DNA of 64,000 bases from Stramenopiles sp. TOSAG23-3. Taxonomy: Eukaryota. How positions within the stretch are numbered: the first letter of the stretch is position 1; every line of letters begins with the position of its first letter. Shown one piece after another: positions 300-52,700 of the stretch. The stretch lies in assembly GCA_900128585.1 (NCBI GenBank), contig LT642147.1, positions 1 through 64,000 on the forward strand, written 5' to 3'. A program made the translations under genes and the position numbers. The notes beneath the pieces are model-generated. The model ran no database searches and was not told where the DNA came from. It saw nothing but the letters and a program-made list of their open reading frames with translations.

Positions 300-1478
300 A
301 TGTTGAAAACGAAAGAGGTGGGGGCCTCTCGGGAGGGAGCATTCTCGTGCTGCCCGGCAAACTTACCGCGAAGTGTCTACAAACACCTGCTGCTGGCACA
401 GGGTGTAACCGTTGGGGGTGTTTCCATCGGCCATGTCTCTAGACGGCATCGTTACAACGCTCAAATTAAAGAGGAGAAAGTAGCGTCTTTTGACGACTGG
501 TTCTTTCCAGCGGAAGAAACACTGTACGTCAACGGAAAAGCAGTGGTAGTCGCAAACGAGACTTACGACGTGTCCAGCGCCAGGATATTTGCCTATCACA
601 AGCCGGAGAATGTGGTCGCAGACGCTAACAGAGGGTCGAAACTGTACGACATTGGCAGTGAGATCATGACGCGATATGGTGTGGAGAACCGACCATTTCC
701 CATCGGACAATTGGACAAAAACACCACCGGTCTCCTTCTTTTCACAACCAACGGCCACGTCGCCAACTTTATAAACTTGCCAGGGCGCGTTCGGAAGACG
801 TACTTGTCAACTTACAATGCACCGGCGGGCAACGAGCCTACAGATGTTCAGATGGCCATGCTTGTTGGGCCCGGGGTAGACGTGAGTAGAAAGGGGGAGA
901 AAAGAATCGTAAAGCTGGAAAGCTGCAAACTGCTGGCGGTTCGGCCTGCAACAAACTCAAAAAAGCGGAAAGCGCCAATGTCGTTGGAGGAGCAATCCCA
1001 CCAGGTGCACCGAAGAAAATTCAAATACGATCTTGAAATGACGATAAAGTCGGGAGCAAACCATATTATTAAGCGTGTTATGAACGCCGCCAAGCTTCCA
1101 CCATGCGCGAAACTGCAAAGGCAGGCAATTGGCGATCTTTGTCTTAACCCTGGCGGCAAAGGAGGCGCAGAAGCACTAGCATTGGGTGTCGGAGAGACTG
1201 CAGAGTTGACGATGCGGCAAAAGAAACTCATTGGCCTTCCATCGGAAAAGGATCTGCTTCAGCTGAGAATGTGCCAATTGCTGTGCCAATTCCGGGCGAT
1301 GCGTAACGACAATAGGGGAGAATCGAGCGATAGGAGTCTCCAAGCATCCCGACTTGAAGGTTTCTTAAAAGAAAATTTTCGGATTGATGGGTCTTGCTTT
1401 ATGGAATTTCCTGGGTTGGGTTGCAGGTGGTGCAATCGCAAGAAAGTATCTTTGAACCCTAACTATAACTCTAAATAA
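300..1478 (+). CDS. RsuA/RluB/E/F-family pseudouridine synthase
   Basis: Family motifs AYHKP, RPFPIGQLDKNTTGLLLFTTNG (catalytic Asp; canonical GRLD), KTY, TIKSGANHIIKRV and LQRQAIGDL. First ATG at 300. Confidence 0.85.
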   Translation: MLKTKEVGASREGAFSCCPANLPRSVYKHLLLAQGVTVGGVSIGHVSRRHRYNAQIKEEKVASFDDWFFPAEETLYVNGKAVVVANETYDVSSARIFAYHKPENVVADANRGSKLYDIGSEIMTRYGVENRPFPIGQLDKNTTGLLLFTTNGHVANFINLPGRVRKTYLSTYNAPAGNEPTDVQMAMLVGPGVDVSRKGEKRIVKLESCKLLAVRPATNSKKRKAPMSLEEQSHQVHRRKFKYDLEMTIKSGANHIIKRVMNAAKLPPCAKLQRQAIGDLCLNPGGKGGAEALALGVGETAELTMRQKKLIGLPSEKDLLQLRMCQLLCQFRAMRNDNRGESSDRSLQASRLEGFLKENFRIDGSCFMEFPGLGCRWCNRKKVSLNPNYNSK

Positions 1479-1962
1479 TATATAATTTTAAAATCCGTTA
1501 TATTTAAAGCTTTTCTGAAAAATAATGAATTGAATCTGCGTGCGTAATTAAATATAAAAATTTACAACAAAAATATCGTCTAAAAAAAGAATAAATAATT
1601 AAAGATTTAATATCTTCTTCTCTCTCTCTCTGATGGTGGGCTGTTGTGGGTTGAAGAATATATTTTAATTTTTACTATTTTCCTCACTTTCGGTGCAGGG
1701 TACGTAGTGTAATAGAGATGATGTTTTTTTATTTCAGGATATATTATGCATCAAGTGTGTACGACAAAACGAAGTCATCTTATTAATTCATTGAAGAAGG
1801 TGTCAGTTATTACGATTCCTTGTGGTTTGTTTCTGTTGTTAGAATTTACTTGCGGTTGTCTAAGAAAAAGTTAGGGTACGAGCGACAGAGCGATACAAAG
1901 AGTTGTTAAAACATCCCATTCAGAGCAGGGTGAATTGGAATGTTAATCGGTTGATGTAGAAC

Positions 1963-4900
1963 ATGGGCTCGGGCTTGTCAAAAGCGCAGCGCGATTGTTA
2001 CCAAAAATATGGTGGCCCCGGCAGCGAGCAGCACGCCGTTGTCGTGCAGAAGTACACCCGTCGGCGATTGGCGCAATTACGGGTGGCACGGATCAGATTT
2101 AAACTAGAAAAGGAAAAGGTGATGCAGAAGTTAAACATGTGGAAGACGAAAAGGCAAACCGAAAATGCGGCAGCTGCAAAGCTGCAGGCTATTCTTCGCG
2201 GCCATCGAGTCCGGAAAAGAGCGAAAAAGAAAATGGATAAATTAAGAATAGAAAAGGAGAAAAGAGACAAATTAGCAGAAGAGAAGCGTTTGCGGGAAGA
2301 GGAAGAGAGGAGAAACAGGGAAGAGGAACGGCTCGCAGAGTTGAAGCGCAAGGAAGAAGAGCGACTGCGATTAGAACAAGAGGAAGCCAGGAGAATAGAA
2401 GCTCGTAAACGACGCAAATCATGGGGCCTGTTTGAGCCGGAGGAAATCGAAGATATTTACAAGGATGCCGCAGACCAGCGCGCAGCGAAGAATCTCGACG
2501 CTGCCGTGGACTTGTACGAGCAGCTATCGTCGTGTGCACGGAAGACCAAGAACATCCAATTGGAAATGGACGCATACTTCGAAATTGGTTGCACGCACGA
2601 GGCGATCAACCGGGATTACCAGGAGGCCATAGTACACTACAACAAGAGCATGATGAAAGCCGTGCACTTGAAGCACGACGAGGGCGAGTTGCGCAGTTTA
2701 ATGCACATAGGTCACTGCTACGTGTCGAAGAACGAGAGAGAGGAAGCCATAAAAAATTACAAGTTGGCCCTTCGGATCACGTCCAATCGCACGAAGGAAC
2801 CCCCCCCAACCAAACGCACTAACGATGGAGCGTCCGTGCCTGAAGAGGCAAGTTTACTATGCACGTGTGCCTTCTTGGACGCGTCGGCGGCGTGCTGGTG
2901 CCAGTGCTCCGATGTGTCCTTTGGATGTCGCAAACGAGCGGAAGGGTGCTTTCATGGAACATTACCAAACGATGGGAGAAATGGTCGAAGCAAGCGGTTA
3001 ATGAGGAATGAAAGTGTGATTAATGGAAAATTAGGCCGACTTCACGATTTGCAGGGCAGCATTCCGGACGCGCTGCTGTGTTACGAGAAGGAGCTGGAGA
3101 TTGCAACAGAGCTGGGGGACCACGAACGGGAAATTAAAAGCGCCACAAATATAGGGATCATACGGGCAGGATACTTAGAGTACGATACCGCCTTGGAGCA
3201 CTTTGACCTCGCGCTTGACCGTGCTTTACAACACAGCACTTGGCACGCGTACCAAGCGCGGGCGCACGGCAACGTCGGCAACATGCTTGCGAAGCGTTTG
3301 AAGTTCCAGAAAGCGCTAGAAAACCACAAAAAAGACTTACGCATTACTCTGCAGCACATTCCAGAGGATAAGATAGGGACCAGCGTGGCATACTCTAACG
3401 TTGGGTCCTGCCTTTGCGTTCTTGGCAGGCACGAAGAATCATTGGAGTTTCACTTTAAAGACTTGAAATTGTTAGAAGAGTTTTTGGAAGAGGGGGAGGG
3501 GACGGAGAAGAGAATTGTTATTTACAATAACATTGCTGACGTTTACCGAGAAATGGGAACGCACGAAAAGGCATTGGAGTTTCACGAGAAATCATTAGCC
3601 CTTGCCATTCAATGCGGGAGTCGTAGACACGAAGCTTTGGCGTACGAACATTTTGCCAATACATACTTGCGCATTGGCGGTAAATCCGAGGATGCGCTGG
3701 ATTATGCGCATATGTTTTCCGAAATAGTGACGACGATAGATGATAAAGAAGGCGAAGGGAGGGCATTTGGACTTGTGGCATCGGTGTACCAAGCAAGGGG
3801 GAAATATTCTAGGGCGACAGAGCACTTTAACAAAGCCATAGAATCATGCCATGAGACTAACCAGTTCGGTGCGGCGCGGGAAAATTTGAACAAGCTTGAC
3901 GCTATGACAAAGGATATTGAAGACATTGGAGAGGGGGACTCGGAGAGAGATGACAAAATAGCGACAACTTCGCCAGCAATATCGCAGGAGTCCATACTAC
4001 TCTTCGCGGCCGAAAATGGTTTTATTCAATACATACAGCAAGTGCTGAACAGAGGGGTGGACCCGAACATAAACATCACAAACAGAGAAACCAAAACGAT
4101 TCACGTTGCTGCTGAAAATGGACACTTGGACATTGTCCAGCTTTTGGTGGCCAGCGGAGCCGACCCGAACGCCGAAACATATCTGTTTGAGAAAGCGATA
4201 GACCTCGCAAATGTAAATGGCCACCAACACGTTGTGGACTTTTTTGTGGACGAGTGCGGCAATGCAAATTCGTACCAATATTCTAGGCGGACAGTTCAGG
4301 AGCGCCAGAGAAAAAGGTTGGTGATGCGATGGGGAAGCGATGTATCCCGGCCAGCTCGAGAAAGTGTTATTTCGGCCAACCGAACAATTGACGAATTCGA
4401 CATCGATCAAAGAAAAGACATTTACCGACGCACGCCATTCATGTTTGCGTGCATTAGCCAGCATTTTGACTGGATCAACCAGATATTAACGAACCAGCTC
4501 GACGAGGACAACGCAATGCTTGAGCAGCGGGATAATTTTGAAAGATGGACCGTCCTGTTTTATTTAGCATTTTGCAGGGACGAACATGTTGCGTGTAGAA
4601 TTGCGGAGTTGATACTGAAGCACAAACCTGAATTGCAAAAATTAAAGGATCGCTTCGGGAAAATGGCGTATGAATACGCTGAGTCGCAAAACAAATTGCA
4701 TTTGAAGAAGATTCTGGCTCAAAACACTTCTAGACAAATCATCCAAACTGCACTGAGAAAAATTGAATTTGCATGCCGCGCATTTTTTATTGGGTTTATT
4801 ACGCCAACGATGCTTCTCGCCAGCTTTATGAAGAGGCGAACACTATCAAGGCCATCAATAGTGTTGTTTGAAGACAACATAGAGACATCTATGTTGTCAA

Positions 4901-17784: not shown

Positions 17785-19890
17785 ATGGACGACGGAGCGG
17801 TTGAGGTGAGTCGCCCGGCACGGCCGGAAAAATACGATGCGTTAGGAAGAAGCATACGGACGTGGTGGGAAGACGGGAACGGTGGCGGTGGATTTTTTGA
17901 GGCGATCGTGTACAACTATGATTCAACTAGCAACAAGCACATGGCCCGTTACCTTGCGGATGGAGCGCTGGAGTCAATTAATGTTCTTGACCAAGACGTG
18001 ACCTTTTTGGACGAAGGTTTTAACGCGAACAGAAATAGCTACCTTTGGAAACTGTTTTTGGCGGAAGCGGAAGCGGGGGCGCCTCTCCCGCCATCGAACC
18101 CGCTTGAGATTTACATAAAACACACGAAGAAGTCACTGCTTTCACCAACGCCCACGGGCGAACAGGAGCGCAAGCTGACCCAGTACGCTTGTGAAAACTT
18201 TTCCAAGATAAGCTCGCAGGAGCGCGAAGCGTATGAAACCCAAGCAGCACACGACCACCAGCGTTTTTCAAAGGAGTTTGATGCGTACTTCAAAGCGGTT
18301 CACGGGAGGCTCCCCCCGAACAATTTGTTGCGGAAGGAAAAAGTGGAGAAGAAGAAATTGAAATTGAAACTTGTCGTGAAGAGGACGAAGCCTAAGCCGC
18401 CGAAGTCTTCTGGAGAGCCATCCCGCAAGCGCCGAAAGCCGAGCCAGCCGACTGGGGTGAAAAAGGAACCGGCAAAGAAAATGCCGAGCGTTCTTCTTCA
18501 CCCCCCGCGCCCAGAGGGACCGTACGCTTTGGGCCACCGAGTGGAGGTTTACTGGGCAGGCGACAAAAGGTTCTACCCCGGAAAAATTGTAAAGTTTAAT
18601 GCGGAAACAAGTATGCACACGGTCCGCTACGAAGAGGACGGCAACAAAGAAGAGATCGATTTGGAGGACACCAAAATCAACTTTTTTGTCAAAAGCCAAG
18701 AGGAGGAAGATGAACTTCAGTGGCAGCGCTACTTTGCAAAGTTGCACAGCAAACGGGTCCCATTCGAGCGGCCTAGGAATGCTTTCCAACTGTACTGCAG
18801 AAAAAACACGGAGTTTTTGAAGCAGACGTACCCGGCGTTGCCTTTGCAGAAGGCCGCTGGGAAGCATTGGAAACAAGTATCGGCGGACGCCAGGCTTCCT
18901 TTAGAGGAGGAGGCCCGGGCTAACATGGTGGTGTACAACCAAAAGCTGGAGGCCTACTTGAAAGCAATGCCGCGAGGGGGTTACCCCCCGTTGCCACCAA
19001 AAGAAATCCCGCTGAAGGTGTGGCACACGGAGAGACTGAAACACGCTAGACCAGAATGGAGGGGACCGATGACGTCGCTGTTTAAGCGGGGGTTTGCGGT
19101 CTTTGAAAATGTTCTTTCCCATGCTGTCATGGACCTCCTTCTGGACGGCCCGAAAGAGAAAGAAACGACGCCCGATACCCATTCTAACAGCGAGGAGGAG
19201 CAGGAAAACCGGTGCAACGGGCGGAGGGTTTTGCGAAAGCGGAGTGCCATGCAGACGTGGCATGGGGCAAAGGCTACGATCGCAGCGCATATTGACAGAC
19301 GGTCTAGCGGGCAAATAACGATAAAAGCGCCGTTGTGCACACGGAGCAGTGGTAGGTATGACATGCCTCTAAGCAACGACGTAGCATCGCCAATTTTCAT
19401 GTCTCTTCAGAAGGCCGGGCTGATAGACTTTGTCCAATTTTTGTTGAGCAATCGGGGCACAATCCGTACACAAAACATCATGCTGTCCGAGCCGGGATCT
19501 CAGCGGCAACCCATTCACACCGACAGCAACTGGGACCGCCACTGCAAGCGCGATCCCAAACCCCATTACTATACAATATTAATCCCGTTTGTGGACCAAA
19601 ACAAATTCACGGGAGGAACCATGCTCTATCCAGAAACCCATCGTACCACAAAACTCGCTGCTGTCGAAGACGGTGGCAGCGTGAAAGGGATTGAGCCACC
19701 TCAGAAAGCAGGGAACGCGTTGGTGTTTGATGGGCTGCTACAGCATCGTGGCACAGAGAACGTGAGTGGCGAGGAGGGAAAGGGGGACCCCGTCGATCGC
19801 TACTTTTATTACATGGCGATATGCATCGGGAAAGACCCAAACACGTACGTCACTGGGTATGGCGGTAAGCGCCAACAAAGCCGCCGCTAG
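17785..19890 (+). CDS. [Tudor-HMG box]x2 + PhyH-type 2OG-Fe(II) dioxygenase fusion protein
   Basis: Tudor-like segments (LGRSIRTWW..FFEAIVYNYD; LGHRVEVYWAGDKRFYPGKIVKF..HTVRYEEDG). HMG boxes (RPRNAFQLYC..GKHWKQVS). Dioxygenase triad QPIHTD...LLQHRG and a C-terminal R. First in-frame ATG at 17785. Confidence 0.8.
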   Translation: MDDGAVEVSRPARPEKYDALGRSIRTWWEDGNGGGGFFEAIVYNYDSTSNKHMARYLADGALESINVLDQDVTFLDEGFNANRNSYLWKLFLAEAEAGAPLPPSNPLEIYIKHTKKSLLSPTPTGEQERKLTQYACENFSKISSQEREAYETQAAHDHQRFSKEFDAYFKAVHGRLPPNNLLRKEKVEKKKLKLKLVVKRTKPKPPKSSGEPSRKRRKPSQPTGVKKEPAKKMPSVLLHPPRPEGPYALGHRVEVYWAGDKRFYPGKIVKFNAETSMHTVRYEEDGNKEEIDLEDTKINFFVKSQEEEDELQWQRYFAKLHSKRVPFERPRNAFQLYCRKNTEFLKQTYPALPLQKAAGKHWKQVSADARLPLEEEARANMVVYNQKLEAYLKAMPRGGYPPLPPKEIPLKVWHTERLKHARPEWRGPMTSLFKRGFAVFENVLSHAVMDLLLDGPKEKETTPDTHSNSEEEQENRCNGRRVLRKRSAMQTWHGAKATIAAHIDRRSSGQITIKAPLCTRSSGRYDMPLSNDVASPIFMSLQKAGLIDFVQFLLSNRGTIRTQNIMLSEPGSQRQPIHTDSNWDRHCKRDPKPHYYTILIPFVDQNKFTGGTMLYPETHRTTKLAAVEDGGSVKGIEPPQKAGNALVFDGLLQHRGTENVSGEEGKGDPVDRYFYYMAICIGKDPNTYVTGYGGKRQQSRR

Positions 19891-20155: not shown

Positions 20156-21780
20156 CTAATAGCACTGGGACTCTACAAAGTCTTTGAAAGTGGAAGATGG
20201 GGCGCTGAATTTTCTTCTCGAGTGTCTTTTTGAGTCGTTCAACAACATCTTGTTTGCATTAGAATTAATTCTCTCTGCCAATTTACGTTTGGGAACTGGG
20301 CGAGTAACGATGCGCTCTTGGACCTTTGCCGAGAGGGTTGAGCGCCTCTTTATCTTTATCTTCTTTTTCGGTGTGACACGGAGTTGTTGCTTCATATTTT
20401 CGTTATCCTCTACTTCAGTGTCTGCGTCATCGTCTGAACTATTCTTCTTGATGCTTTCGCAGCGATTCAGAAACTTGCGGGCGTCTTCCGTTTTTGATTT
20501 TTTAACGTCATATGTGGCGCTATTGTGTTTCCCTTTCTTAATCAAATAGGCGTGAAATTCTAAATGGGTTAGCACCGCATCGACGACGTCCTTAGGGTAT
20601 TTCTTCATTTTTCCTCGAAGCACAGTTGCAGATATTTGTTTCCTCCTTTTACCCCCGAAAAATATATGACGTAAACTATCTTCCAGAGCGGACTGTTCTT
20701 GGGCATCTTCCATTTCGAAACCATTCTTGAACGAGTCCATCATATCATCGACCGGATTCACAGGAGTGGCAAAAGGTTGACTACTTGGAGCTTTGAATTC
20801 GGAAGTAGGAAGGATTCCAACTGGGGTTTCAGGGACTACTTGGGCCCGGCGTTCTTGTGCAACTATTTTTTTCATATCCTCGTCTGCAAGGGTGTCATCC
20901 AACAGTCGAATGTTTAGCTCTACGGAGCAATGAGGCGTTGAAAGCGTTCCAGTGGGAAACTTTACATGGTTTCCAAAGGTGGCAGAAATACCAGTCTCCT
21001 CATCAAAAAATGCTTCCGTGAACAGGGGGGCTTGGTAGCCTGAAGGCGAGTTTAAAACATTTGTTAGTAGCGCTCTCATCATTCGAACGTGAAGGGCGAA
21101 CAAAAAAGATACTTACCTGGCGGCGCCTTCTCGTTAAAATCCACTTCAAGCCTGACTGCGACAGAGTTTGGCAATGGCGAAGCAGTGTACGTCAGCGCGC
21201 TCACAGCTCGTATGACAGACGCAGTTTGTTTTTGCAAGCTTGTGTTCCAATTGATAGGGTGAACGTTTTGCTGTTCTCCCCCGCTGTTGCGGCCGTGCAT
21301 GGTAAAACGCCCGTCTTTGTCGTAGTCATACGTCATCGTGTACGATTCGAAAGTCTTCCACTCGCCGGCTTCTTTCCGATCGGTTCCACCGGCGTTTGGG
21401 CTAGTTGATTCGCCAGTGTTTTGGGCAAGCGATAGGGTTACCTCTTTGAGAAACTGCTTATCGATCATATCGTACAAACCTTTTTCAACCCACTGCAAAA
21501 ATTTGTCAGGGGGATCAATAATCTTCTTTGCAGATGCCATCGACAGCTTCGAGTGCCTGTGTCTCTCCGGGTTTGGGGTGCTTAGGACAGTGATATCGAG
21601 ATCTCCGTACTTAGTTGACCGAAAGTGTTTCGTCTCAAACAATCCTCGGTAGAAACAAATAGACGATAGAAACGCTTTTGTTCCATTTTTGACGACTTGA
21701 AGACTTTGACTGATCGTCAGAGATTCCGTGCGTTGCTGTTGCCGCGTCCGTTGCTTCTGCTTCATGCTGCTGCGTGGCAT
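20156..21780 (-). CDS. HOP1: Meiotic HORMA-domain protein (Hop1/HORMAD/ASY1); 2 exons, 21780-21117 and 21039-20156
   Basis: HORMA motifs SSICFYRGLFETKHF, LQWVEKGLYDMIDKQFL and ESYTM. Splicing a 77-nt GTAAGT..TACTAAC..CAG intron restores KAPPGYQAPLF. Winged-helix-like segment and C-terminal closure-motif-like RRKFSAP. Confidence 0.88.
21040..21116 (-). other. Spliceosomal intron in HOP1 (77 nt)
   Basis: GTAAGT donor, TACTAAC branch point, TTCAG acceptor; removal joins two HORMA ORFs in frame. Confidence 0.9.
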
Positions 21781-22617: not shown

Positions 22618-24432
22618 TTACCTTTTCCCAATCCGAGTGTAATGCTTGACCATGCGCTCTCGCAATTGGGAGGGAGTTATCCTGGCTCTATTGAGATCGG
22701 TCTTGAAAATCCAGCGTCTGGCAATAAATTCATCGAAGGATTTTATCGTCCACGAATATTTCAAAGAACTAGGTTTGGCGTTTGATATGACACGTTTGAT
22801 ATCGTTTATCTTTTCTTCTTCTTTCCAGCTGCCAATGCGCGACTTCAGGCGCGCAATTCCGCCGATTTCCGGCAGCCATCTCTGAACAGCATCGTAAGAC
22901 CATTCGGGATTTCTGTACGGCAAAGAATGTTGTTGATAGTCTTCCGAGTACCTGTTTGTTAAAGCGTGATGCAATAACTCAACAAGCGACCGCAAACGCT
23001 TGTGCTCGTAGTAACGGCCTGCATAATGCATCTCCTTCGTGAGACCATCGCTCAGACGACCTTCCCCCAGCCAACTTGAATTGCCCGCTTTCGGCTCTGC
23101 TGTGCGAATCCAGTACAGTTCGTACACGCTCTCAATCCCCCATTTTACTAATCGCTCTGCCATGTGACCTATACCATGGTAGAAAAGGAGCTTACGGAGA
23201 TCCATCTGATCCCTTAGTTTCTTCATGGCAGCATATGTACCACACCCCCATTTGCATTTCAATAGCTCTTTTGGGAAAATTTGAAACTTGTTTCCCGTGA
23301 CTACCCGGGTAACCTTTGGGTCGGGAACAACGCCAAGGGGGTTCTTCGTCGAGTGGTCTTCAAACCACGCGGAAACTTCACCAACGACGAGGCGAAAATA
23401 TTGCCGACGTTCTCCGTTCAAAACGGGCAACGATTCATGGGGCGTCTTGTCAGTCATCCAAATCATTTCACCAGCTTCCAGTAAGCGGGTTGGGGGGCCC
23501 AAGAGGCCACGACATCTTTCGATATCCCCGTGAGGACCAATGACATTTCCTGACGGATCGTTCACGTGCATGTTCCACACAGCGGTCGTATTGGCGACGT
23601 TCGATACCATAAATATACCTCCATCGATGACTTCATGTCGCATCATAAGTCCCCCACCCCAGTGATGCTCTGCCCCCGGCACAAACGTGCCCCCCCGCAC
23701 CGTTCGATGGTGTCGGCCCCAGTCGTACGCGGTGTCGGCCGACGACGCTTTATTCGGGCTTATTGGAACAGGCAGGACACCGGGCGATTCCGTGTGCAGC
23801 CCGCCGCGTCTCTGCGAGCTACCTAGAGAGCTGACTGGGCGTTCGTCTATAGTCAAGTATCCAATATGCGATGCGGGCAATTTTAGATAATCAAAACATG
23901 CCATAACAATCTCGTAGTATTGCCGGCAGCCTTCTGGTAACTCTTCTGGACCTTTCCGGACAAGATCCATGTCAATTGGCATCATATTCACGTACAAATG
24001 CTTCCCATCTCCATTTTCAGAAAAAAGCTCCTTGGCATAACTTGCACCCCCAAACTGGTAAAGGCCAGGGAATACAATCCCCTTTTTTACGATGGCGCAC
24101 GGGCAACCTGCGCACCCTGTTCTTTCTCGGGGGTAGTTAGCATTTCTGTCAAAAGTTCCAAGGAGCTGGGGAATATTTTCACCGTAAAACCGTTCGATAT
24201 GCGCTTCCCACCATTCTTCACACACAAACATCCATATGCTTCGAAGTACATCGGTATGACCTCGAAGCAACGATACGGGAGAATTTACCAAATCGATTGT
24301 TCCAAGCAGGAACGTCGTAAGGGATCGGCTCTGGTCCTCGTTGGCCATGGCGTTTTCCTCGCGTGGTGTCTTCTCATCGCTCGTCCCGAGGGCCTCCATT
24401 TTAAACAGTAGTGCTTCAAGTATCGATGCCAT
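22618..24432 (-). CDS. Uncharacterised HxE-type 2OG-Fe(II) oxygenase-like protein
   Basis: VNMMPI, YLTIDE, SQRRGGLHTESPG, GGIFMVSN, WMTDKTPHESLP and RQYFRLV give an HxE...H...R double-stranded beta-helix pattern. Confidence 0.65.
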   Translation of the reverse strand: MASILEALLFKMEALGTSDEKTPREENAMANEDQSRSLTTFLLGTIDLVNSPVSLLRGHTDVLRSIWMFVCEEWWEAHIERFYGENIPQLLGTFDRNANYPRERTGCAGCPCAIVKKGIVFPGLYQFGGASYAKELFSENGDGKHLYVNMMPIDMDLVRKGPEELPEGCRQYYEIVMACFDYLKLPASHIGYLTIDERPVSSLGSSQRRGGLHTESPGVLPVPISPNKASSADTAYDWGRHHRTVRGGTFVPGAEHHWGGGLMMRHEVIDGGIFMVSNVANTTAVWNMHVNDPSGNVIGPHGDIERCRGLLGPPTRLLEAGEMIWMTDKTPHESLPVLNGERRQYFRLVVGEVSAWFEDHSTKNPLGVVPDPKVTRVVTGNKFQIFPKELLKCKWGCGTYAAMKKLRDQMDLRKLLFYHGIGHMAERLVKWGIESVYELYWIRTAEPKAGNSSWLGEGRLSDGLTKEMHYAGRYYEHKRLRSLVELLHHALTNRYSEDYQQHSLPYRNPEWSYDAVQRWLPEIGGIARLKSRIGSWKEEEKINDIKRVISNAKPSSLKYSWTIKSFDEFIARRWIFKTDLNRARITPSQLRERMVKHYTRIGKR

Positions 24433-41044: not shown

Positions 41045-41974
41045 CTACAGCCCGACCCCTGCCCCTTGGGGGAAAAAATCTCTCAACGTCGCGTTTGCAC
41101 CTTCGACTTCGGGGTCAATGTGGTACGTAAACCCAGGAACCTTCGGATCCGTCGCCCTTTGAAACGCAAAGCAAAGTACTGCCCGGGCCCTCTCGCTTTT
41201 GTTTCCCCCGCCCAGATGGGCACAGCGCGAATCCATGACGTAAACATCGCCCCCTTTGCACTCGATCGCAGCGTCCCTGATTATTTCGTCCGTGAACACG
41301 ACCCGCTTCGATGGCGTCGATCCCTCCCCGCCGTCGTTGTCTCCCACGATCATGTCCTCCAGCTCCCCCTCGCTGTTGTACGTCTCTTTTTTCACTACGA
41401 CAGTTTCGTGGAAGGACGGTAGGTGAGTCTTTTCGAGCACGTGGGTCGGCCCCATATTCAGGTTAATATCATGGAGCGCCACGAACACGCTGGCGAGCCC
41501 CGGCAGCCCCGTCGCAGGGTCGTCGTCCAGCTTGCCGAAGGGAATATCGGAATGCAATCCCTGGGGCGCGGCGCCGGGGAAGGTGAGCAAGACGCTTAGC
41601 TCGACCAACGGTCCGTCATCCCCGCAAAGGCTTTGAAACATCGCTTTCGCACTCCTGTCCGCCCCGCAAACATGGTCCAGGATGGGTTTGATTTCAGGGG
41701 ACAAAGGAACGGGGAAGGAGTGCCTGTTTTTCGGGGAGTCCACAATATCAAATATTCTCCCGAGCTTGTACCGAAGCGATGAACTTTTTTCCTCCTGAAG
41801 CCGCAAAACAAAGTCCAGCGCCCGCGAAGTAACATCTTCTGGCAAACTGTGCCGAAAAACAGTGAACCCGCGCCGAACCAATTCGTCAGTGTATACATTG
41901 GACGAGGCGCCCGTTCCCTCCCGTGCGAGGGACCCGAAACACCTCGCCGCTGCCAAGAACGGACGCAGAAGCAT
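41045..41974 (-). CDS. PhyH-family 2OG-Fe(II) dioxygenase, possibly mitochondrial
   Basis: GFTVF, PGAAPQGLHSD, SVFVALHDINLNMGPT, GDVYVMDSRCAHLGGGN and RAVL. Arg/Ala/Leu-rich N-terminus. Confidence 0.85.
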   Translation of the reverse strand: MLLRPFLAAARCFGSLAREGTGASSNVYTDELVRRGFTVFRHSLPEDVTSRALDFVLRLQEEKSSSLRYKLGRIFDIVDSPKNRHSFPVPLSPEIKPILDHVCGADRSAKAMFQSLCGDDGPLVELSVLLTFPGAAPQGLHSDIPFGKLDDDPATGLPGLASVFVALHDINLNMGPTHVLEKTHLPSFHETVVVKKETYNSEGELEDMIVGDNDGGEGSTPSKRVVFTDEIIRDAAIECKGGDVYVMDSRCAHLGGGNKSERARAVLCFAFQRATDPKVPGFTYHIDPEVEGANATLRDFFPQGAGVGL

Positions 41975-43380: not shown

Positions 43381-46092
43381 ATGGAGGCCGAGCTTCAGGC
43401 GGCCGTGCTGGAGCACGCAAAGTACCTCGGGCTGGACCCCGCCGTCGACGGCAAGTACATGCACTTGGCGAAAGAGGCCCTGTTGGCCCAGGTCCCGGCA
43501 CCGTGGGTCCAGTACGAGAGCGAGGAAGGCATCCCGTACTACTGCAACGAGGAAACCGGCGAATCCAGCTGGGAAAACCCCATGGACAACGTCTACTTTG
43601 AAAAGATAAGGGCGCTCAAGGAGCGGGACGGCGGGGTGCAGCCCCCGGCGAGCGCCCCCGTGGCCCCGCCCGCCGTGCCGCCCCCGGCGCTCCCGCTGCC
43701 GCCGCTGTCGCCGCCCGCGGCCGCCGCCCCCGACCCCGCGCCGGGGACGGGCAAAGCCGAGCCCAAGGCAGAGCCCGAAGGCGAGGACGACATAGAAAGT
43801 ATAGTGGGCAAGCGAGTCCTTGGGGGGGGCGTGGTCGAGTACAAAGTTCACTGGAGAGGGACCGGCCCGTCCGAGGACGAGTGGTTCGGCCGGGACGACC
43901 TGTTCGCGGAGTTCCCCCAGCACGTCCGCGATTACGAGGCCGCCCGCGACGCGCACGGGGCCTCGAAGCGCCGCCCCCCTCCCCCCCTCGCTGCCGCGTC
44001 CCCCGCCGGCAGCAACGCCGCCGCCGCCGCCGCCATGGAGTCCATGGAGCGCACGATCGACGAGCTGGAGGAGGAGGTGGTGCAGGCGAGGAAGCAGCTC
44101 ATGCGCGCCAAGGAAGAAGGGGACCGGGCGGCGCGCGGGAAGCGCCGGGCCGAGAGGGAGCTGAAGGACGTCTCGGACTCCTTGGAACGGCTGCGGGAAG
44201 AACTGGAGAGGGAGGCGGAAGAGAACGACGCCATGCGCTCGAACGTTCGCCGGATGGAGGCAGAGATCAAGCGGCACGAGCGGGCCTCGCAGGTGGCCTC
44301 GGGCGCCGGGCCGGGGCCCGCGGAGGCCGCGAACGCGGAGGAGGTGCTGGCCCTGCAGAAAGAGCTGAGCGGGGCACGGGGCGAGGTCAGCACGCTGAAA
44401 GCCGAGGGCGCCGCGGCCCGCAGGGAGGCCAGGGCGCTCCAAGAGGAGGCCTCGGCCCTGTCGGAGTCCCTCGAAAAGCGCAAGGCCGAGCTCGAGCAAG
44501 AGATGCACGCGTCCGCGGAGCTGCGGAAACGGCTCTTGGCCGCGGAGGCCACGGTCCCGGACGAGGGCAAGGGCCCGGACCCGGAGGCCGCGAAGGAGCT
44601 GGAAGAGCTTCGGGGCCGGTGCGAAGCGTCGGAGAACAGGATCAGCGACCTGAAGGGCGAGCGGCGCGCGCAGAAGGAGCAGCTTGGGGTGATGCGCAGC
44701 CTCCTTCTGCAAGCGCAGTCCGAGCTGAAGACCCGGGCCGCGGAGTCGGCCGAGCTCCAGGCGACGATCGAGACCGTCCGGGCGTCCGCCGCGGCCAACC
44801 TGGACCAGGCGGAGAAGGAGAAGGCCGCGGAGATCGAGCGGGTGGTGCAGGGCCGCCTCGCCGCGGCGCGGAGCGTCGCCGACGCGGAGATCGCCGCCGT
44901 CCGGGGACAGCTCGAAGCGGCCGAGGCGAAGCTGGTCGAGGAAATGACGAAGCGGCGGCGGCTGCACAACCGGGTCATGGAGCTGCAGGGCAACATACGC
45001 GTGTACTGCCGGGCCCGCCCGGTCAGCGCGACCGAGGAGGGGTTCGGGGACGAGAAGGCGGCCGTCGTGGTGCGCATGCCCGCGAACGACGACGGGTCCG
45101 TCCTGGTCCGCGCGTCCCTGGAGCAGCGAGAAATACGGTCCGACTTTGACTTTGACGCGGGGTTCTGGACCGGGTCGACGCAGGCGGGCGTGTTCGAACG
45201 GGTCCACCCGTTTGTGGTGAGCGCGATGGACGGGTACAACTGCTGCATATTCGCCTACGGCCAGACGGGGAGCGGGAAGACGTACACCATGGAGGGCCGG
45301 GCGGCCGACCGGGGCGTGAACGTGCGCGCGCTGGACGCCATGTTCGAGGAGGCCGGGAGCCGGGCGAAGAATTTGGGAATGCAGTACACGTTTGCGGTGA
45401 CCATGTGCGAAATATACCAGGAAGAGGTGTACGACCTTCTCCCGGAGACGAAGGTCGCCACGAGGACGAAGATCCAGCTTCGCCAAGGGAAGGGCGGGGC
45501 CGTGTACGCGGAGGGGCTGAACTCGGTCCCCGTCGCCACCACGGAAGACGTAGAACGCCTCGTCAAGCGCGGGCACAAGAACCGCTCCGTGGGGGCCCAC
45601 AACTTCAACGAGCACTCGTCCCGGTCCCACCTGGTGGTCGCCGTGGAGATACGGCGAGAAATCGTTCGGGACGACGGCCGAACGATGGTCCGGGTCTGCA
45701 CGCTCAACTTGGTCGATTTGGCGGGGAGCGAAAGGATCAGCAAGACCGACGCCAAGGGGGTGCGGCTGAAGGAGGCCCAGAGCATCAACAAAAGCCTGTC
45801 CGCGCTGGGCGACGTGATCGGGGCGCTGGGGGGCGCGAGCAAGCACGTCCCGTACCGGAACTCCAAGCTGACCTGGCTGCTGAGCGGGTCCCTCAGCGGC
45901 AACTCGAAAGTCCTGATGTTCGTGTGCATTTCGCCGACGAAAATGTGCGTGTCCGAGACCATGTGCTCGCTCAATTTTGCGCAGCGCTGCCGGTCGACCG
46001 AGCTCGGCCGGGCCAGCAAAGTTGGGGAGAGCTCGGGGGGGGGCGCGGGAGGCGCAAGGGGGCACCTGAGGCGCGGCAGCGGGAGGCGGTGA
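43381..46092 (+). CDS. Kinesin-14 (C-terminal motor) with N-terminal CEP164-like WW region and chromodomain
   Basis: Neck RRRLHNRVMELQGNIRVYCR; P-loop FAYGQTGSGKT; NEHSSRSH, LVDLAGSER and HVPYRNSKLT. WW domain PAPWVQY..YYCNEETGESSWENP. Chromo-like IESIVGKR..EYKVHWRG..DEW. Confidence 0.9.
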   Translation: MEAELQAAVLEHAKYLGLDPAVDGKYMHLAKEALLAQVPAPWVQYESEEGIPYYCNEETGESSWENPMDNVYFEKIRALKERDGGVQPPASAPVAPPAVPPPALPLPPLSPPAAAAPDPAPGTGKAEPKAEPEGEDDIESIVGKRVLGGGVVEYKVHWRGTGPSEDEWFGRDDLFAEFPQHVRDYEAARDAHGASKRRPPPPLAAASPAGSNAAAAAAMESMERTIDELEEEVVQARKQLMRAKEEGDRAARGKRRAERELKDVSDSLERLREELEREAEENDAMRSNVRRMEAEIKRHERASQVASGAGPGPAEAANAEEVLALQKELSGARGEVSTLKAEGAAARREARALQEEASALSESLEKRKAELEQEMHASAELRKRLLAAEATVPDEGKGPDPEAAKELEELRGRCEASENRISDLKGERRAQKEQLGVMRSLLLQAQSELKTRAAESAELQATIETVRASAAANLDQAEKEKAAEIERVVQGRLAAARSVADAEIAAVRGQLEAAEAKLVEEMTKRRRLHNRVMELQGNIRVYCRARPVSATEEGFGDEKAAVVVRMPANDDGSVLVRASLEQREIRSDFDFDAGFWTGSTQAGVFERVHPFVVSAMDGYNCCIFAYGQTGSGKTYTMEGRAADRGVNVRALDAMFEEAGSRAKNLGMQYTFAVTMCEIYQEEVYDLLPETKVATRTKIQLRQGKGGAVYAEGLNSVPVATTEDVERLVKRGHKNRSVGAHNFNEHSSRSHLVVAVEIRREIVRDDGRTMVRVCTLNLVDLAGSERISKTDAKGVRLKEAQSINKSLSALGDVIGALGGASKHVPYRNSKLTWLLSGSLSGNSKVLMFVCISPTKMCVSETMCSLNFAQRCRSTELGRASKVGESSGGGAGGARGHLRRGSGRR

Positions 46093-46730
46093 TGCGAGGG
46101 GGAGGGGGGAGGGAGGGGGCCAACGTAACGTATTAAAACAAAAAAATACATACGAAGTAAGGTAAGCGAATGTAACAACGTAATGCCTGCAATTTAGGTA
46201 CGTTATTTAAAATTTATCGTCTTCATGCACCGCGAATGTAAATCTGCTCCTTCGGTCCAGGAAAAAATAAAAATGAAATATATACTTTTGATACAAGAAA
46301 ATTGGCTGTTATTTAAGTAATTAAATTAATGTACTGCGAACTGAAATCTAGATTTAGACATTCTAGGTTTACATTCCTTCATGACTAATCGATATACCCT
46401 TGCCACTTAGTCTTGACTATCATTCTCAGATGAACTCCCTTCATAATCTGAACCAGTAGATGGATTAGCATTGTATACTTTTCGTATCCTCTTTATTCCC
46501 GTGTGGTGGGACCAAGTTATATAAGAAATACCAGTTTAATAAACACGACATGGAAAAAATTGAAGATCAAGATTTTTACAGGTACTCTTGTATTATAAAA
46601 TCTTAAAGTTTAATATCGTACGAAATAAGCCCTAAGTATATTTTAGTATGGAGGCGTTCTCGAGGTTTGGTTTGCCCGCACCGCCACGAAAAGGCTCCTC
46701 GTGCGCACGATACACGCCCGCCGCCCGGCC

Positions 46731-49700
46731 TTAAATCTGTTGGGTTTTTGGCTCGGGAGACGAGGGCAGCTGAAAGCTGGACGCCTTTGCCCCTGCGGAC
46801 GCTTTCACGGATTTCTTCTTCGTCTTCTTCTTCTGCCCGGCCGAGGACTTCTTCTGGCCCGCGCTTTTCGTCTTGGACTTCCTCGCCCCCTTCTTCTCCG
46901 GGCCCTTCTCCGCGTCTGGCCCGTCCCCGCCTTCCAGGTCCACCATGGCAATCTCTTTCTCCCCGTCGGATTTTTTGGCCGGCTTGGGCTTGCTGGCGAC
47001 CTTCTTCAACGCCAACTCCTTCGCCTCGATGCGGGCAAGCACCTCCGTCTGCTCCGTCTCCAGCTCCCCGATGCTCTCCTCGATGGAGTCCCCCTCGTCG
47101 CCTTCGTCCAGGGCCTTCTTCTTTTCCCGCAGCGCCTTCATTTCCGCGTCGATCTCCACCAAGCGCTCCACGTCCGGGTCGCTCGAGGCAAGCGGGCCCT
47201 TGTACACGGGGTCGTCGCCCTTCCTGCCCAGCATGAAGAACAACCCAAAGCACACCAGCCCGATCAAGATGACAATCGCGACGATGATCAGCCAGGTCAA
47301 GTCGAAGGCCCCGGTCCCGGCGGCGGCGGCGGCGTCGTCCGTGGCGGGCGACGGTTTGGGGGTGCACACGTCACCGGTATCGCAGTACGTGGCAACGCTG
47401 CCCATGGCGCTCCCGCAAAAGCACGCCTGCGAGGCTTCCTCGCCTTGGGTGCAGGGGCGGCGCTGCGGCACGGCTCCCCCGTTCGCGTCGTACTTGCACA
47501 CTTGCCCGGGTGCCAACAGGTCGGGGATGGCCGAGCTGGTGCCACACTTGCACGCCACGGAAACGATCACGTCTGCGGGGCAGTCCACAACGTTGGCAAG
47601 GCGAGCCACGGTGCTTTCGTCGCTGCTGGAAGTCCCAAAGCCCGGGACGAGGCACGTCTGCAGCGGCCCTTGGGCCACCTTGCACTTGAGACCCTGCTCG
47701 TTGCAGCAGGCGCACGGGAGCCCGGTCAACGCGTTGCCGTCGGTGGAGCACCGTCCCAGGGCCGTGTCTTTCAGGACCGTGTGCGCGCACACCTGCCCAC
47801 TGGCGATCATGGCACTCCCGCACCTGCAGGGGAGCGAGGCAACTGCAGACCCATCGCTGGAGCTGCATGGCGCGACTTCGGACGTGGCGCCGCCCGCGCA
47901 AGCCTGCCCTGCCTGGGCGATGGTGCATTGGGTGCCGTCCGTGTTGCAGCATGCGCACTCGGACGTTGTTACTGCTCCGTCGATGCACTTGGTAAGGGTG
48001 CCGTCGGTTTTGATGGAGTGGTAGCACACGCCGCCGGGCACAATCGTCTTTGCGCCGCACGTGCACGTGACTTTGGTAGCCGCCGTGCCGTCTTGGTTCG
48101 CGCAGTCCGTGAACGCGCTCACGGCCGCCGTTGACGCGCCCGTCAGGCACGTATCTGTCGTGGTGGCCAGTTTGCAGGCTCCCCCGTCGGTGCTGCAGCA
48201 GAAGCACTCTGCGGTCGGCCGGTTCCCGTCGGTGGTTGTGCACTTTGCAATCTTGTACGAGTCCTCGGCGTTTTTCAGGTTGCAAACGTCTCCGCTCACG
48301 GCGTTGGGCGCCGTGGGCACCCCGCACGTGCACGACTTCGTTGTGGCGCTGATGCCGTCCCTGGGGCTGCATGTGCTCAACAGGGACACGGCGCTGTTCA
48401 GGCACACCCTTCCCGATTCCGCTTGGTTGCACGCCTGCCAGGCGTTGCAGCACGCGCAAAACCCGGTGTTGACGCTGCCGTCGCTCTTCGCACACTTCGA
48501 CAGGACTTTCTTCGAGTACCGGTTGTGGATGCACAGATCCCCGCTCGCAATCGCCGGCGTTTTTCCGCCGCACTTGCAGGCTCGAGGGGCGGCGTGGTAC
48601 CCGTGCTGGAATCTTTCGTTGTTTTGCATGTCGATCTGAACGTCGTCGCAGTTTTGGACGTTGTCCACCCGGGAGGAACCGCCGACGAGCTTGTCCTCTC
48701 GGTCTGTGCCAGACTGACCAGTAAACCCGGTCCTCAACCCTGCATTTGCAGTATTGCACGCCCCGGTCGCTAACAATGCGTGCAACCGGAAAGTACTCCC
48801 TTCTGCGTTTATGTTTTGAACACAGTACGTTGTTCCATCGCGCAGCCCGTTGGGGATATTTGAAGATGCAAGGTGTGTATCAGCCTCGTTTCCGAGGGCG
48901 TAGGTCACATTTTGGCCATCGGAAAACCCGTGATTTTCGATGGTGAACGTGTCGCCGTTAAATGCTTTGAGAAAGTAGTACGTCAGCCCGCACGTCTGCC
49001 CGACCTTGGCGTAGTTGCACTGGCGAGGGTAGGTGCCTGCGACTGGGCAGCACGCTTGGGCCGTAGTGGCGACGATCCCCCCGCCCCCTGCGAATATGGT
49101 CATCGATTGCATCGCTTTCGTCTCGCACACCTCGCCCCTTCCCATCGGCGATCCCCTGGTAGTTGGCACGCCCGTGTTGAGGCAGTAGCACTCCGTGGCC
49201 GTCTGCCGGATGTTGTCCCCGGCGGTCTTGGGCGTGCTGGTTAGGAAACACTGCAAGCCCCCTTTCCATGCGTCAGTGGATGATATTGCAGTACTAGTGA
49301 ACAGCCCCCCAGCCGCGTTTGGCGAGGTAAGGGTGATTGGAGAGCCCGTGGAAGCAATAGCGTCTCGGTGCCAAAATGTCAATGTTCCTTTGGTCGGTGA
49401 AAGCTTTGCCTTGGCGTTGTTGTTCAAGACGAACGTGGACCCCGCCGACGTTGTGTACGCCAAGGTACCGGTGGGCGCCAAGGACTCCGTGACACTCATG
49501 TAAATGGGGTCTCCGTTAGCAATAGTAGTGTCTGTTGGAGTTCCCCTGGTTACCGTGACTGTAGTTGAACCACCAGTTGACGTAACTGTCATGATTTCGC
49601 TTTTGATTTTGATCAGTAAACGTAGTCCCAGTTCCCGAGAGCGTATTAGTAACGACTGTCGTCTTTGCAGTGGTGAGCAAAATAGGGTCGGTGTCGGCGT

Positions 49701-52700
49701 CAAGTATAGTTGCCGGAGAACTATGCCTCACAACCGTGACCTCGTCTGGGTCGCCACTATTATCAACTGAAGCAACTCTCATGATTTCGCCGTCGATTTG
49801 GATTACATCTCCTGCGCTGAACCTAGTTCCTTCGCCATCAGCGACATTAAACGTAGTCCCACTGGAGAGCGTACTCGAAACAACAGAAGCGAGCGCCACG
49901 GTAGCGATAGCCTCGTCTATCCTGGTCACCGCTAAGTTGTACGTCACTGCCGTGTTCGCTCGCGCGTTTGGTTGAAAGATATCGGGGGACGATTGCGTGT
50001 CCGTGCACACAATTGTCACTTCAGTGTTTGCGGCGATGGCGGTCATGGTGTTGCCGTTAGCATCCGTGCGCCCCGGAATTACCGTTAAAACTTTTCCTGT
50101 TGATCCTGAAACTGCAAATGTTGTTGAAGTCCCAAATACGGTCCCTCCTGCCGAGCTTGATTGACAGTACTGGGCGAGTGTGGTACTCGCATGGTCATCA
50201 CGAAACACTTGCGTGGCAAAGGTCGCCACAATAGAATCTTCGCCCACGGTGAATGGCCTTGCCGTTGTAAACGTAAGGGTAAGCTGCGTGGGGCGCAAGT
50301 GCTCCTTCAGGCTGCTCGTGCCCAGTTGCACCGTCGGTACCCCTGTCGTTTGGTATGCGAACGTTCCCATCGGGGAAAACACGGTGGCCTTGCTGGCAGT
50401 ATCCTGGTAATATGGTTTGCCAATGTTGGCAGTAGTCCCTGCGCGCGCACGGTACGTCACGACTGTGTTTGCCGCGGGGTTGGCGTTGTACATGGTAGCA
50501 GCTTCGCAAGCGATGGTGACGGTTGAATGTTTTGCGATTGCGCCGGCGGTGACTACTTCAAGCACCGATCCTTTCTGGTAGGCGTAAATGGGGTCTCCGG
50601 CAGCAATAGCGTCACTCGCGGTACTCCCCCTGGTTACCATTACTTGGTCTGCACTAGTAGAACTAGTACCATCAACCGCGTCAGTCGCTTGAACGACCGT
50701 CATGATTTCGCCGCGAATTTGGATGCGCATACCGGGTTGAAAAAGTGTTGCTTTGCCATTAGGAATGGAAAACGTAATATCAGTGGCAGCTGGGGTAAAA
50801 GCAGTTGTGACTGTGGTTAGCTGGGCCTGAAAGTAAATGGGGTCTCCGTTAGCAATAGTAGAGTCTTTTGGAGTTCCCCTGGTTACCGTGACTGTAGTTG
50901 AACCACCAGTTGACGTAACTGTCATGATTTCGCTTTTGATTTTGATACAGTAAACGAAGTCCCAGCTCCGGAGAGCGCATTAGTAACGACTGTCGTCTTT
51001 GCAGTGGTGAGGTAAATAGGGTCGGTGGCACCGGCGGCAAAACTTCCTGGCGTTGAATGCCGAGCTACCGCGACGGTTGTCACGGTACCATCTGACGTAA
51101 CTCTCATGAATTCGGTGCCGATTTTGATAACCCTACCTTCTGGGAAAAGCGCCACATCACCATTAGCAACATAGATCGAGGTCCCTGTATTACCACTGTC
51201 TGCGAAGTTATTACTGGCGGCCCCACCCCCATCCGCATTAGTTGTGGTTAGGGTAAAAAGCGCCACGGTAGCGATAGCCTCGTCTATCCGGTCCAACTTC
51301 ATCCCGCTCGACGTAAAGATGGACCCCGACGCAAAATTGGTGGTTCCACCAATTTTGCTGAGCGTGCTGCACCTGGTCGTTTCGACCTCCTCGTTCGCAA
51401 AGATCCCGTGGCTAAACTCGAACCGTATCCTGTCGTCCACGGCAAGTGCCGCCGGCGCAGTGAATTGCATCGTCAGCCTCGTCGGTTGCATTCTTTCGCC
51501 CGTCTTATCGATGCTTACGGTGGATAGTGCGGTGGACGTGAAGCCAGGCGTGGAAGGAGCGGACACGGCATAGTCAGCCCCTGCGTTGTTATCGGTATCG
51601 ATTCCAATCCCGAAAGTGAGCGAATTGTTAGCAGCAGGGTTCTTGGTGAATATGCCGTAGTGCTGGACCGTATCGCCGGAACTATGTGCGGCGAAGGCTC
51701 CAACTCCAAATAAGCTCGTCCTTGAAGCAACGGTCAATGTGTTGCCAGCCACGGTTGTGACCCGCATCACTTCATTGTTAATTCTGATGTATTTATTCAC
51801 AAGGCCGCTTCCCCCAAGGATACTAGCATCCGCTACTGGCACGGACACGTCCGTGGCGGCGTTGTTGTTGGCCACATTGGCCGTCAGGGTGGTAGTGGCG
51901 CTCCGGCGAAGATCGACGCAACGTATGAGGACTGTTGCGCCCTTGGCAATATTGTTCACCTTTGGCGTCACGGTCAAAACATTCCCGTTTCCGTTCACAC
52001 TGAAAATGGACGTGGCAGCCATCGTACTTCCTGCAGCCATGCTCTGTCTGCACATCGTGGAAATGTCGACAGTGGCGGTGGTATCGAATATTTTGCGAGA
52101 GAATGTGATGATTATGTCATGATTGGTGTGTGTTATTGCTTGAGGGGCTTTAAAGGTCACTTGCAAGTCCATCGGTGTCATTTCTTCCCTAGAATCATCA
52201 ATGGTAAGCTCGGACGCCGACAACGTCGTGTATGCTGGCATCGTCACGTCCCCAATTGCAGTCCCAGTTCCACCCGAAACAGTATCACCTGCTGCTCTTA
52301 ATTGGTATTTCACCAGGGTATTTGCCGCGGCATTCGGTTGGAAAATATTGCTTGACGCTCTGGTGTCCGTGCAAACAATCGTTACGTCAGAGTTCTTAGG
52401 AATGTCATCGGGAGTGGTCTTCGGAGTTATTGTCAATATTTGTCCCACACCAAAATTAGTAACCCCATTCCCAGTCACTTCAAACGTTGACGCGGCGTCA
52501 ATGGTGACCGTGCCCCCTGTCGCGGTTCTTATTGTGCTGCTTGCTTTACAGTACGTGTTGAGAACAGTATCGGCGTGGTCGAGGGAAAAAATTTTTGTGT
52601 TAAATTTTAGAACAATAGTGTGCGGGGCCGATTCATCGATAAGGGCCGGCGCGGTGAACGCAAGGGTCAGGGTTGTGGGGTTGAACCCCTCCCTCAATTC

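Follow-up and report, generated by a model that had tools for sequence, protein, structure and literature searches.

A stramenopile PhyH-type dioxygenase fused to Tudor and HMG modules: candidate chromatin-targeted member of a reader-swapping family

The oxidative enzymes known to act on chromatin are 2-oxoglutarate (2OG) oxygenases of the JmjC, TET/JBP, and AlkB lineages, plus LSD1. In a 64,000-nucleotide stretch of contig LT642147.1 from Stramenopiles sp. TOSAG23-3 (hereafter, the window), one gene (17785..19890, + strand) appears to join chromatin-reader modules to a dioxygenase of the PhyH type, normally a small-molecule enzyme, which raises the question of whether this fusion is genuine, to which branch of the oxygenase fold it belongs, and what it might oxidize. 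The gene runs from an ATG at 17785 to a stop at 19890 as a single uninterrupted, intron-free reading frame of 701 aa (P0001). From N- to C-terminus the product is ordered Tudor-HMG-basic linker-Tudor-HMG-PhyH, as the sequence-only reading had proposed, and Pfam, the alignment of the repeats, and an AlphaFold model agree on this architecture in one gene. Pfam applied to the whole protein places HMG_box (aa 329-391, E 6.8e-9) and PhyH (aa 436-662, E 7.9e-7; 30 bits versus a cut-off of 22) over their cut-offs. The model shows a beta-barrel, three helices, disorder, a second beta-barrel, three helices, and the enzyme; with a mean pLDDT of 69 and a pTM of 0.46, it does not resolve the arrangement of the domains relative to one another. 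The first Tudor-HMG unit gives weak matches when searched alone (best PDB match 7de9, E 0.043), and its identity is confirmed by its alignment to the second unit (171 aa, 23% identity, E 2e-13) together with the barrel and helices of the model. Judged by this alignment, the two units are an old internal duplication.

Five further full-length records are nearly identical to P0001, differing from it at 3-5 residues each. Mapping of four sequencing runs to the gene gave zero joints, with 29 of 30 bins covered in a DNA run from a different study; the runs containing this DNA were marine in 20 of 24 rows (16 studies; two are possibly the source). Tudor-HMG-PhyH occurs in one ORF in four other clusters at 41-43% identity, and only the P0001 cluster showed the full [Tudor-HMG]x2 arrangement. 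Because of the near-identical records, the joint-free DNA run, and the same fusion in four clusters, the P0001 fusion is not an assembly artefact; Tudor-HMG-PhyH is a real, conserved architecture. Nor was it borne out that two separate transcripts might have been read as one gene, a possibility raised with the sequence-only reading: no intron joint was observed, and RNA-library contigs from two studies (18897-19047 and 18750-19023) span the boundary between the second HMG box and the enzyme, with DNA carry-over possible in these libraries and with Tudor 1, HMG 1, and the flanks uncovered by the RNA runs. The surroundings of the gene are intron-poor and contain sphingosine-phosphate-lyase-like, HORMA, and LRR genes; a comparison of its neighbors with the ORFs in 17 loci gave zero matches.

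The two Tudor domains lie at 17830..18009 (+ strand, aa 16-75) and 18517..18687 (+ strand, aa 245-301), with putative cages of W28, F38, and Y56 plus D59 and E63 in the first and of W257, Y264, and Y282 plus D285 and E289 in the second. Pfam Tudor family PF21743 matches aa 250-295 below its cut-off in the whole protein and above it (31 bits) when the domain is scanned alone. A six-copy Tudor profile searched against the PDB retrieved Arabidopsis RDM15 first (7de9, E 2.2e-8), followed by LBR, TDRD3, and SMN. According to PMC8184781, RDM15 binds H3K4me1 via W616, Y623, Y641, D643, and D645, and H3R2 via E647 and Q654. Our alignment finds counterparts of W616, Y623, Y641, D643, and E647 in both P0001 Tudors; in all six copies the W, Y, D, and E of the cage set are invariant and the Y623 position is Y or F. 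Both Tudors, as far as alignment can tell, look like working methyl-lysine readers whose mark is uncertain: they have in common with the RDM15/PDS5C Tudor the aromatic cage plus D643/E647, but D645, which is part of its mono-methyl selectivity, is not kept and has no acidic residue at its position in the aligned Tudors, so that they may read a mark other than that of RDM15.

The second HMG box (18769..18966, + strand, aa 329-394) follows a conserved helix at aa 307-323; it scores 36.5 bits against a Pfam cut-off of 25.4 and is helical in the AlphaFold model. The first (18100..18303, + strand, aa 106-173) is divergent, with an HMG-like Pfam match (aa 109-151) below the cut-off, and is supported by a purpose-built profile (E 3.8e-4), by its three helices in the model, and as a repeat of the second box. 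The best matches of the boxes are HMGB-type proteins. Between the two units lies a basic linker (18304..18504, + strand, aa 174-240) with 23 K/R versus 4 D/E in 67 aa, low pLDDT in the model (disordered at aa 179-239), and clusters resembling nuclear localization signals, as which they may function. Basic clusters of this kind (5 or more K/R in 6) were found in 13 of 31 members of the family described below and in 6 of 24 of a second, more distant clade, versus 0 of 24 stand-alone relatives.

The PhyH-fold Fe(II)/2OG dioxygenase domain occupies 19009..19857 (+ strand, aa 409-691) and includes a family-specific basic segment (aa 481-497) and a C-terminal DPNT-x-VTG motif; the positions previously given for the reader modules held, but the enzyme, at about 19009-19857, is longer than had been claimed. 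Its predicted iron ligands are H578-T-D580 (19516..19524, + strand), which aligns with the HxD of SptF, and the distal H654 (19744..19746, + strand), and we take R672 (19798..19800, + strand), from general knowledge of the fold, to be the 2OG-binding arginine. This set is intact in P0001 and in 31 of 31 aligned near-full-length family members. The family also has motifs of its own, namely FDGLL, HTDSxW, RYFYY, and DPNT-x-VTG. The structure model of the domain (pLDDT 91) most resembles TlxI and AsqJ (Z 21.2; 7vbq_B with rmsd 2.5 over 202 aligned residues), AndA and KanJ (Z 20.6), and PHYHD1 (Z 16.6). These PF05721 enzymes (TlxI/J 7vbq, AsqJ 6k0e, AndA 5zm2, KanJ 7cl2, human PHYHD1 3obz, and PAHX 2a1x; Z 16.5-21.2) have the fold and the HxD...H...R pattern in common with P0001, but are only 12-17% identical to it and act on small molecules; to our knowledge, none carries chromatin readers.

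That the enzyme is of the PhyH type rather than JmjC, TET, or AlkB, as had been suggested, is upheld by a Pfam PhyH match above its cut-off and by top folds that are all PhyH-type. The Pfam scan of P0001 gave no match at E≤0.1 to the Tet_JBP, JmjC, or AlkB-type 2OG-FeII_Oxy_2 profiles, and PhyH enzymes filled the lists of two wide fold searches, with no TET or JmjC chain among the best 50 rows of either. AlkB enzymes (ALKBH5 4nj4, ALKBH6 7vjv) have the classical 2OG fold, as P0001 does, and some are fused to readers (PMC4738411, in part), but in the same fold search they reached a Z of about 10.9 versus 18.6 for the best PhyH match (ALKBH5: Z 10.9, rmsd 3.8, 170 aligned, rank 47). KDM4/JMJD2 likewise carries Tudor and TAM/MBD readers on a 2OG oxygenase (PMC2938197, in part), a reader fusion like that of the P0001 family; P0001 differs in lacking a JmjC match and in having the C-terminal arginine typical of classical 2OG oxygenases. 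TET/JBP enzymes follow a logic that may be shared, with DNA-binding modules directing a 2OG oxygenase to bases in DNA (PMC4738411 and PMC3417536, in part), but they form a different branch of the fold, and base oxidation by P0001 is a proposal only. By every feature tested P0001 is a member of the PhyH family and, by Pfam profile, not of TET/JBP, AlkB, or JmjC, although it may work like any of these.

A search of 1.84 billion representatives with the catalytic domain gave 147 matches, of which 48 had E≤1e-10 and 29 had E≤1e-30. In quick tree searches (both trees with SH-aLRT support only and midpoint rooting, omitting P0084, P0002, and rows covering <130 profile positions), the close matches grouped together (43 rows, SH-aLRT 91) and were separated, with a support of 99, from six outgroup rows. 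By catalytic domain they make up a eukaryotic family of their own, in which the targeting modules vary. Among the 31 near-full-length members, Tudor-HMG is found in five (P0001, P0003, P0004, P0005, and P0184, the last with two Tudors), MBD-like modules in six by a strong leave-one-out profile match (up to three copies; weak in four more) and RAMA in one (E 5.9e-15), whereas modules that are weak or recognized by eye occur in five and no reader was detected in 14. The MBD-like module of P0025 matches MBD in structure (TM 0.75), and that of P0032, when aligned to MBD2, lacks the Asp and Tyr of the methyl-CpG contact set. Our first tree had suggested MBD as the ancestral module; this was dropped when leave-one-out profiles gave no support to P0022 and P0026 and weak support to P0020 and P0042. 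In databases the members appear as hypothetical or as "Dioxygenase andA."

Among 20 close members whose records were consulted, the named ones are the thraustochytrids Hondaea and Mucochytrium plus two with fungal labels; the correctly labelled members are thraustochytrids. Judged by these named relatives, the host of P0001 is probably a heterotrophic stramenopile. P0042 is filed, unlike the other named members, under the chytrid Batrachochytrium salamandrivorans and is possibly mislabelled or from a mixed assembly, and P0030 is a marine transcriptome record whose taxid, that of a basidiomycete, is probably a label error. Beyond eukaryotes, none of 61 pattern matches in prokaryote genomes was a relative and 2 of 13 viral contig stretches gave one weak locus (E 6e-4), which, with a single short motif as the query, is weak evidence of absence. 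PHROG and NCBIfam profiles gave zero matches; an Atlas feature search with the enzyme domain returned generic bacterial and phage PhyH clusters, and a BFVD search folds at 9-19% identity only. Fusions longer than 1227 aa were absent among 1252 candidates, again weak evidence.

One locus, L009, shows that readers of this family may lie on a separate exon. The readers encoded by its upstream exon are four HMG boxes, a Tudor, and a canonical MBD (Pfam E 2.9e-12; MBD2/MBD3 E 1e-10). Removal of three GT-AG introns places this exon in one frame with the enzyme, giving 973 aa with zero internal stops (1146-4422, + strand). In the resulting model an HMG box and an acidic tract come first, then the MBD, then the other three HMG boxes, the Tudor, and the enzyme; for intron 1, 2 of 12 tried GT-AG pairs were in frame, so that this junction is a model, and the 3' end is incomplete. 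L010 and L011 are 99% identical to it. The MBD keeps, in the MBD2 alignment, two arginines, an aspartate, and a tyrosine that presumably serve in methyl-CpG reading. Since the L009 readers sit upstream in this way, reader-less records may be truncated gene calls, and the stored proteins of its subclade (P0007 and P0039) contain the catalytic exons only; some of the 14 reader-less members may be explained in this manner.

A second PhyH clade also bears readers. It comprises 26 distant rows (SH-aLRT 92), of which 11 (P0059, P0061, P0063, P0064, P0066, P0076, P0097, P0098, P0100, P0119, and P0152) carry PHD (5), chromo (2), or MBT-like (4) domains, several below the Pfam cut-off, versus none of the other distant relatives (26 of 28 scanned). 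Two of ten looked up carry names, Thecamonas and Paulinella. The tree does not show this clade and the Tudor/HMG/MBD family as sisters, and two separate recruitments are therefore possible. We regard it as possible rather than probable that PhyH oxygenases came to eukaryotic chromatin separately from TET/JBP, AlkB, and JmjC, and probably on two occasions, once as a basal-stramenopile HMG/MBD/RAMA/Tudor family that would oxidize a DNA base and once as a broader protist PHD/chromo/MBT clade (apusozoan, rhizarian, and others).

What the enzyme acts on depends first on where it is sent. Because three kinds of DNA or chromatin reader are attached to one orthologous, catalytically intact domain, we consider it likely that the P0001 family is targeted to chromatin, a suggestion of the sequence-only reading that gains from the intact RDM15-type cages and from the MBD or RAMA on the same enzyme in relatives. 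As for the substrate, we favor, tentatively, a nuclear, chromatin-tethered Fe(II)/2OG oxygenase that oxidizes a methylated or otherwise modified DNA base, which is ranked first because DNA binding is common to the readers and basic segments surround the active site. The basic clusters would carry P0001 into the nucleus, the Tudors would dock on methyl-lysine, most likely of histone H3 as in RDM15, the HMG boxes would bind and bend linker or distorted DNA, the basic lid segments would contact the DNA backbone, and the methyl group of 5mC, thymine, 6mA, or an alkyl lesion would be hydroxylated at the iron centre, so that a mark is written or erased. A role in repair would be included, with a precedent for a Tudor guiding a DNA-acting enzyme in plant MSH6-Tudor, which is present in stramenopiles too (bioRxiv 2024.10.15.618488, in part).

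Several observations argue for a base. A DNA-binding module, be it HMG, MBD-like, or RAMA, is part of every reader set that is well supported in the family; no histone reader was detected by Pfam in the MBD-like and RAMA members; and the L009 model joins four HMG boxes, a canonical MBD, and a Tudor to the enzyme. The shared core is also net basic (+1.2 per 100 aa, n=31) versus that of stand-alone relatives (-2.0, n=24), with the strongest contrast in the loop after HxD (+6.9 versus -6.0), but the comparison is not phylogenetically independent and the contrast in segment 601-676 runs the opposite way. Adenine methylation is suggested by the RAMA fusion, RAMA being a predicted modified-base reader (PMC4738411, in part), and by genomic 6mA, present and mapped in the thraustochytrid Aurantiochytrium (PMC12695648, in part); a labyrinthulomycete has DNMT6 (PMC9998398, in part). 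For 5mC, the sole MBD-like module aligned to MBD2, that of P0032, is degenerate, and the undepleted CpG (observed/expected 1.13 in the window and 1.01 in L009) argues weakly against heavy methylation. Against a base of any kind stand the top structural matches, all small-molecule enzymes, and the 14 members without a reader and five with a weak one; moreover, no PhyH-type enzyme is known to flip a base. DNA readers also occur on histone enzymes, as in KDM4 with Tudor plus TAM/MBD and RAMA with SET and JAB.

These last fusions, of KDM4 in some lineages (PMC2938197, in part) and of RAMA (PMC4738411, in part), also serve a rather unlikely but serious alternative, that P0001 is a hydroxylase or demethylase of histones or other chromatin proteins, whose readers hold it to nucleosomes, as those of KDM4 do, and whose active site takes lysine, arginine, or another residue. 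It would fit the intact methyl-lysine cages of the Tudors, the histone-type readers that are the only ones in the second clade, the Z of 15-16 to protein-acting prolyl hydroxylases, and the aromatics W492, W583, Y595, and Y676, invariant or nearly so in the family, which could form a methyl-ammonium pocket. However, the lid segments, being basic, fit a polyanion better than they fit a histone tail, which is itself basic; no histone reader was detected in members whose only module is MBD or RAMA, and there is no JmjC profile match.

Less probable still is a nuclear small-molecule enzyme acting on a free nucleotide, nucleoside, or metabolite, or a sensor of oxygen, iron, or 2OG parked on chromatin. 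We retain it, as quite unlikely, because every close structure is of the small-molecule kind; it would also accommodate P0036, P0041, and P0050, which have short N-termini and no reader, and the RxxGRxD motif, common to the family and its stand-alone relatives. The PhyH fold can moreover serve as a pseudoenzyme organizer in a nucleic-acid complex, as in trypanosome RESC14 of mitochondrial RNA editing (Z 16.8 to the P0001 enzyme domain; PMC12936278, in part), but P0001 differs from RESC14 in keeping its catalytic residues, and their presence in 31 of 31 members argues, on sequence grounds, that it is probably not a pseudoenzyme. A diffusible substrate would not readily explain why an orthologous domain carries three types of reader, and the reader-less records may, as with L009, be truncated. 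Finally, an assembly artefact or recent neutral accident is scarcely credible, for although the exact [Tudor-HMG]x2 layout is confined to one cluster, the single ORF recurs in several independent assemblies, the fusion is kept in four other clusters, the HMG/enzyme boundary lies within RNA-library contigs of two studies, and in full-length members the Tudor is nearly as conserved as the enzyme (26-28 of 61 positions identical).

Iyer et al. (2009) are said to have predicted algal 2OG families with varied fusions, and an earlier in silico mention is therefore possible. Nevertheless, the reader-swapping PhyH subfamily is apparently undescribed: a full-text literature search, mostly of titles and the openings of abstracts, found no description of reader-fused PhyH enzymes and, in particular, no prior characterization with a metabolite substrate, which would have undercut the sequence-only reading; the supplement of PMC2938197 may bear on this point. 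PhyH or phytanoyl occurs zero times in the supplement of PMC4738411. PMC2938197 ties phytanoyl-CoA-type enzymes to bacterial secondary metabolism, and PMC3417536 lists no histone demethylases other than LSD1 and JmjC. If a chromatin role is true, the family would be a fourth chromatin 2OG-oxygenase lineage, built on a metabolic PhyH scaffold, and would widen the epigenetic toolkit and point to repeated recruitment of oxidative chemistry to chromatin. Base oxidation would make it a new class of DNA-base oxidase, perhaps generating an undescribed base in abundant marine protists, and its members are candidate erasers or writers for lineages where these are unknown. Orthologues in the cultured thraustochytrids Hondaea and Mucochytrium make these proposals directly testable.

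Elsewhere in the window, a stand-alone PhyH protein (41045-41974, - strand, E 4.5e-10) is distant from the P0001 family (35 bits) and has an N-terminus that, by eye, resembles a mitochondrial presequence. A 604-aa ORF (22618-24432, - strand) with zero Pfam or NCBIfam matches shows, by eye, an HxE...H...R pattern like that of a 2OG oxygenase, and its aa 149-356 match phrog_8970, a phage family of unknown function (E 4.5e-18). The HORMA-domain ORF near the fusion gene (20156-21780, - strand) is directly followed by a second ORF, and the two are probably exons of one Hop1/HORMAD-like gene. Positions 44000-60000 have a GC content of 0.52-0.69 versus about 0.44 elsewhere and contain, with domains recognized by eye, a WW/chromo/kinesin-like ORF along with several long ORFs of cysteine-rich repeats.
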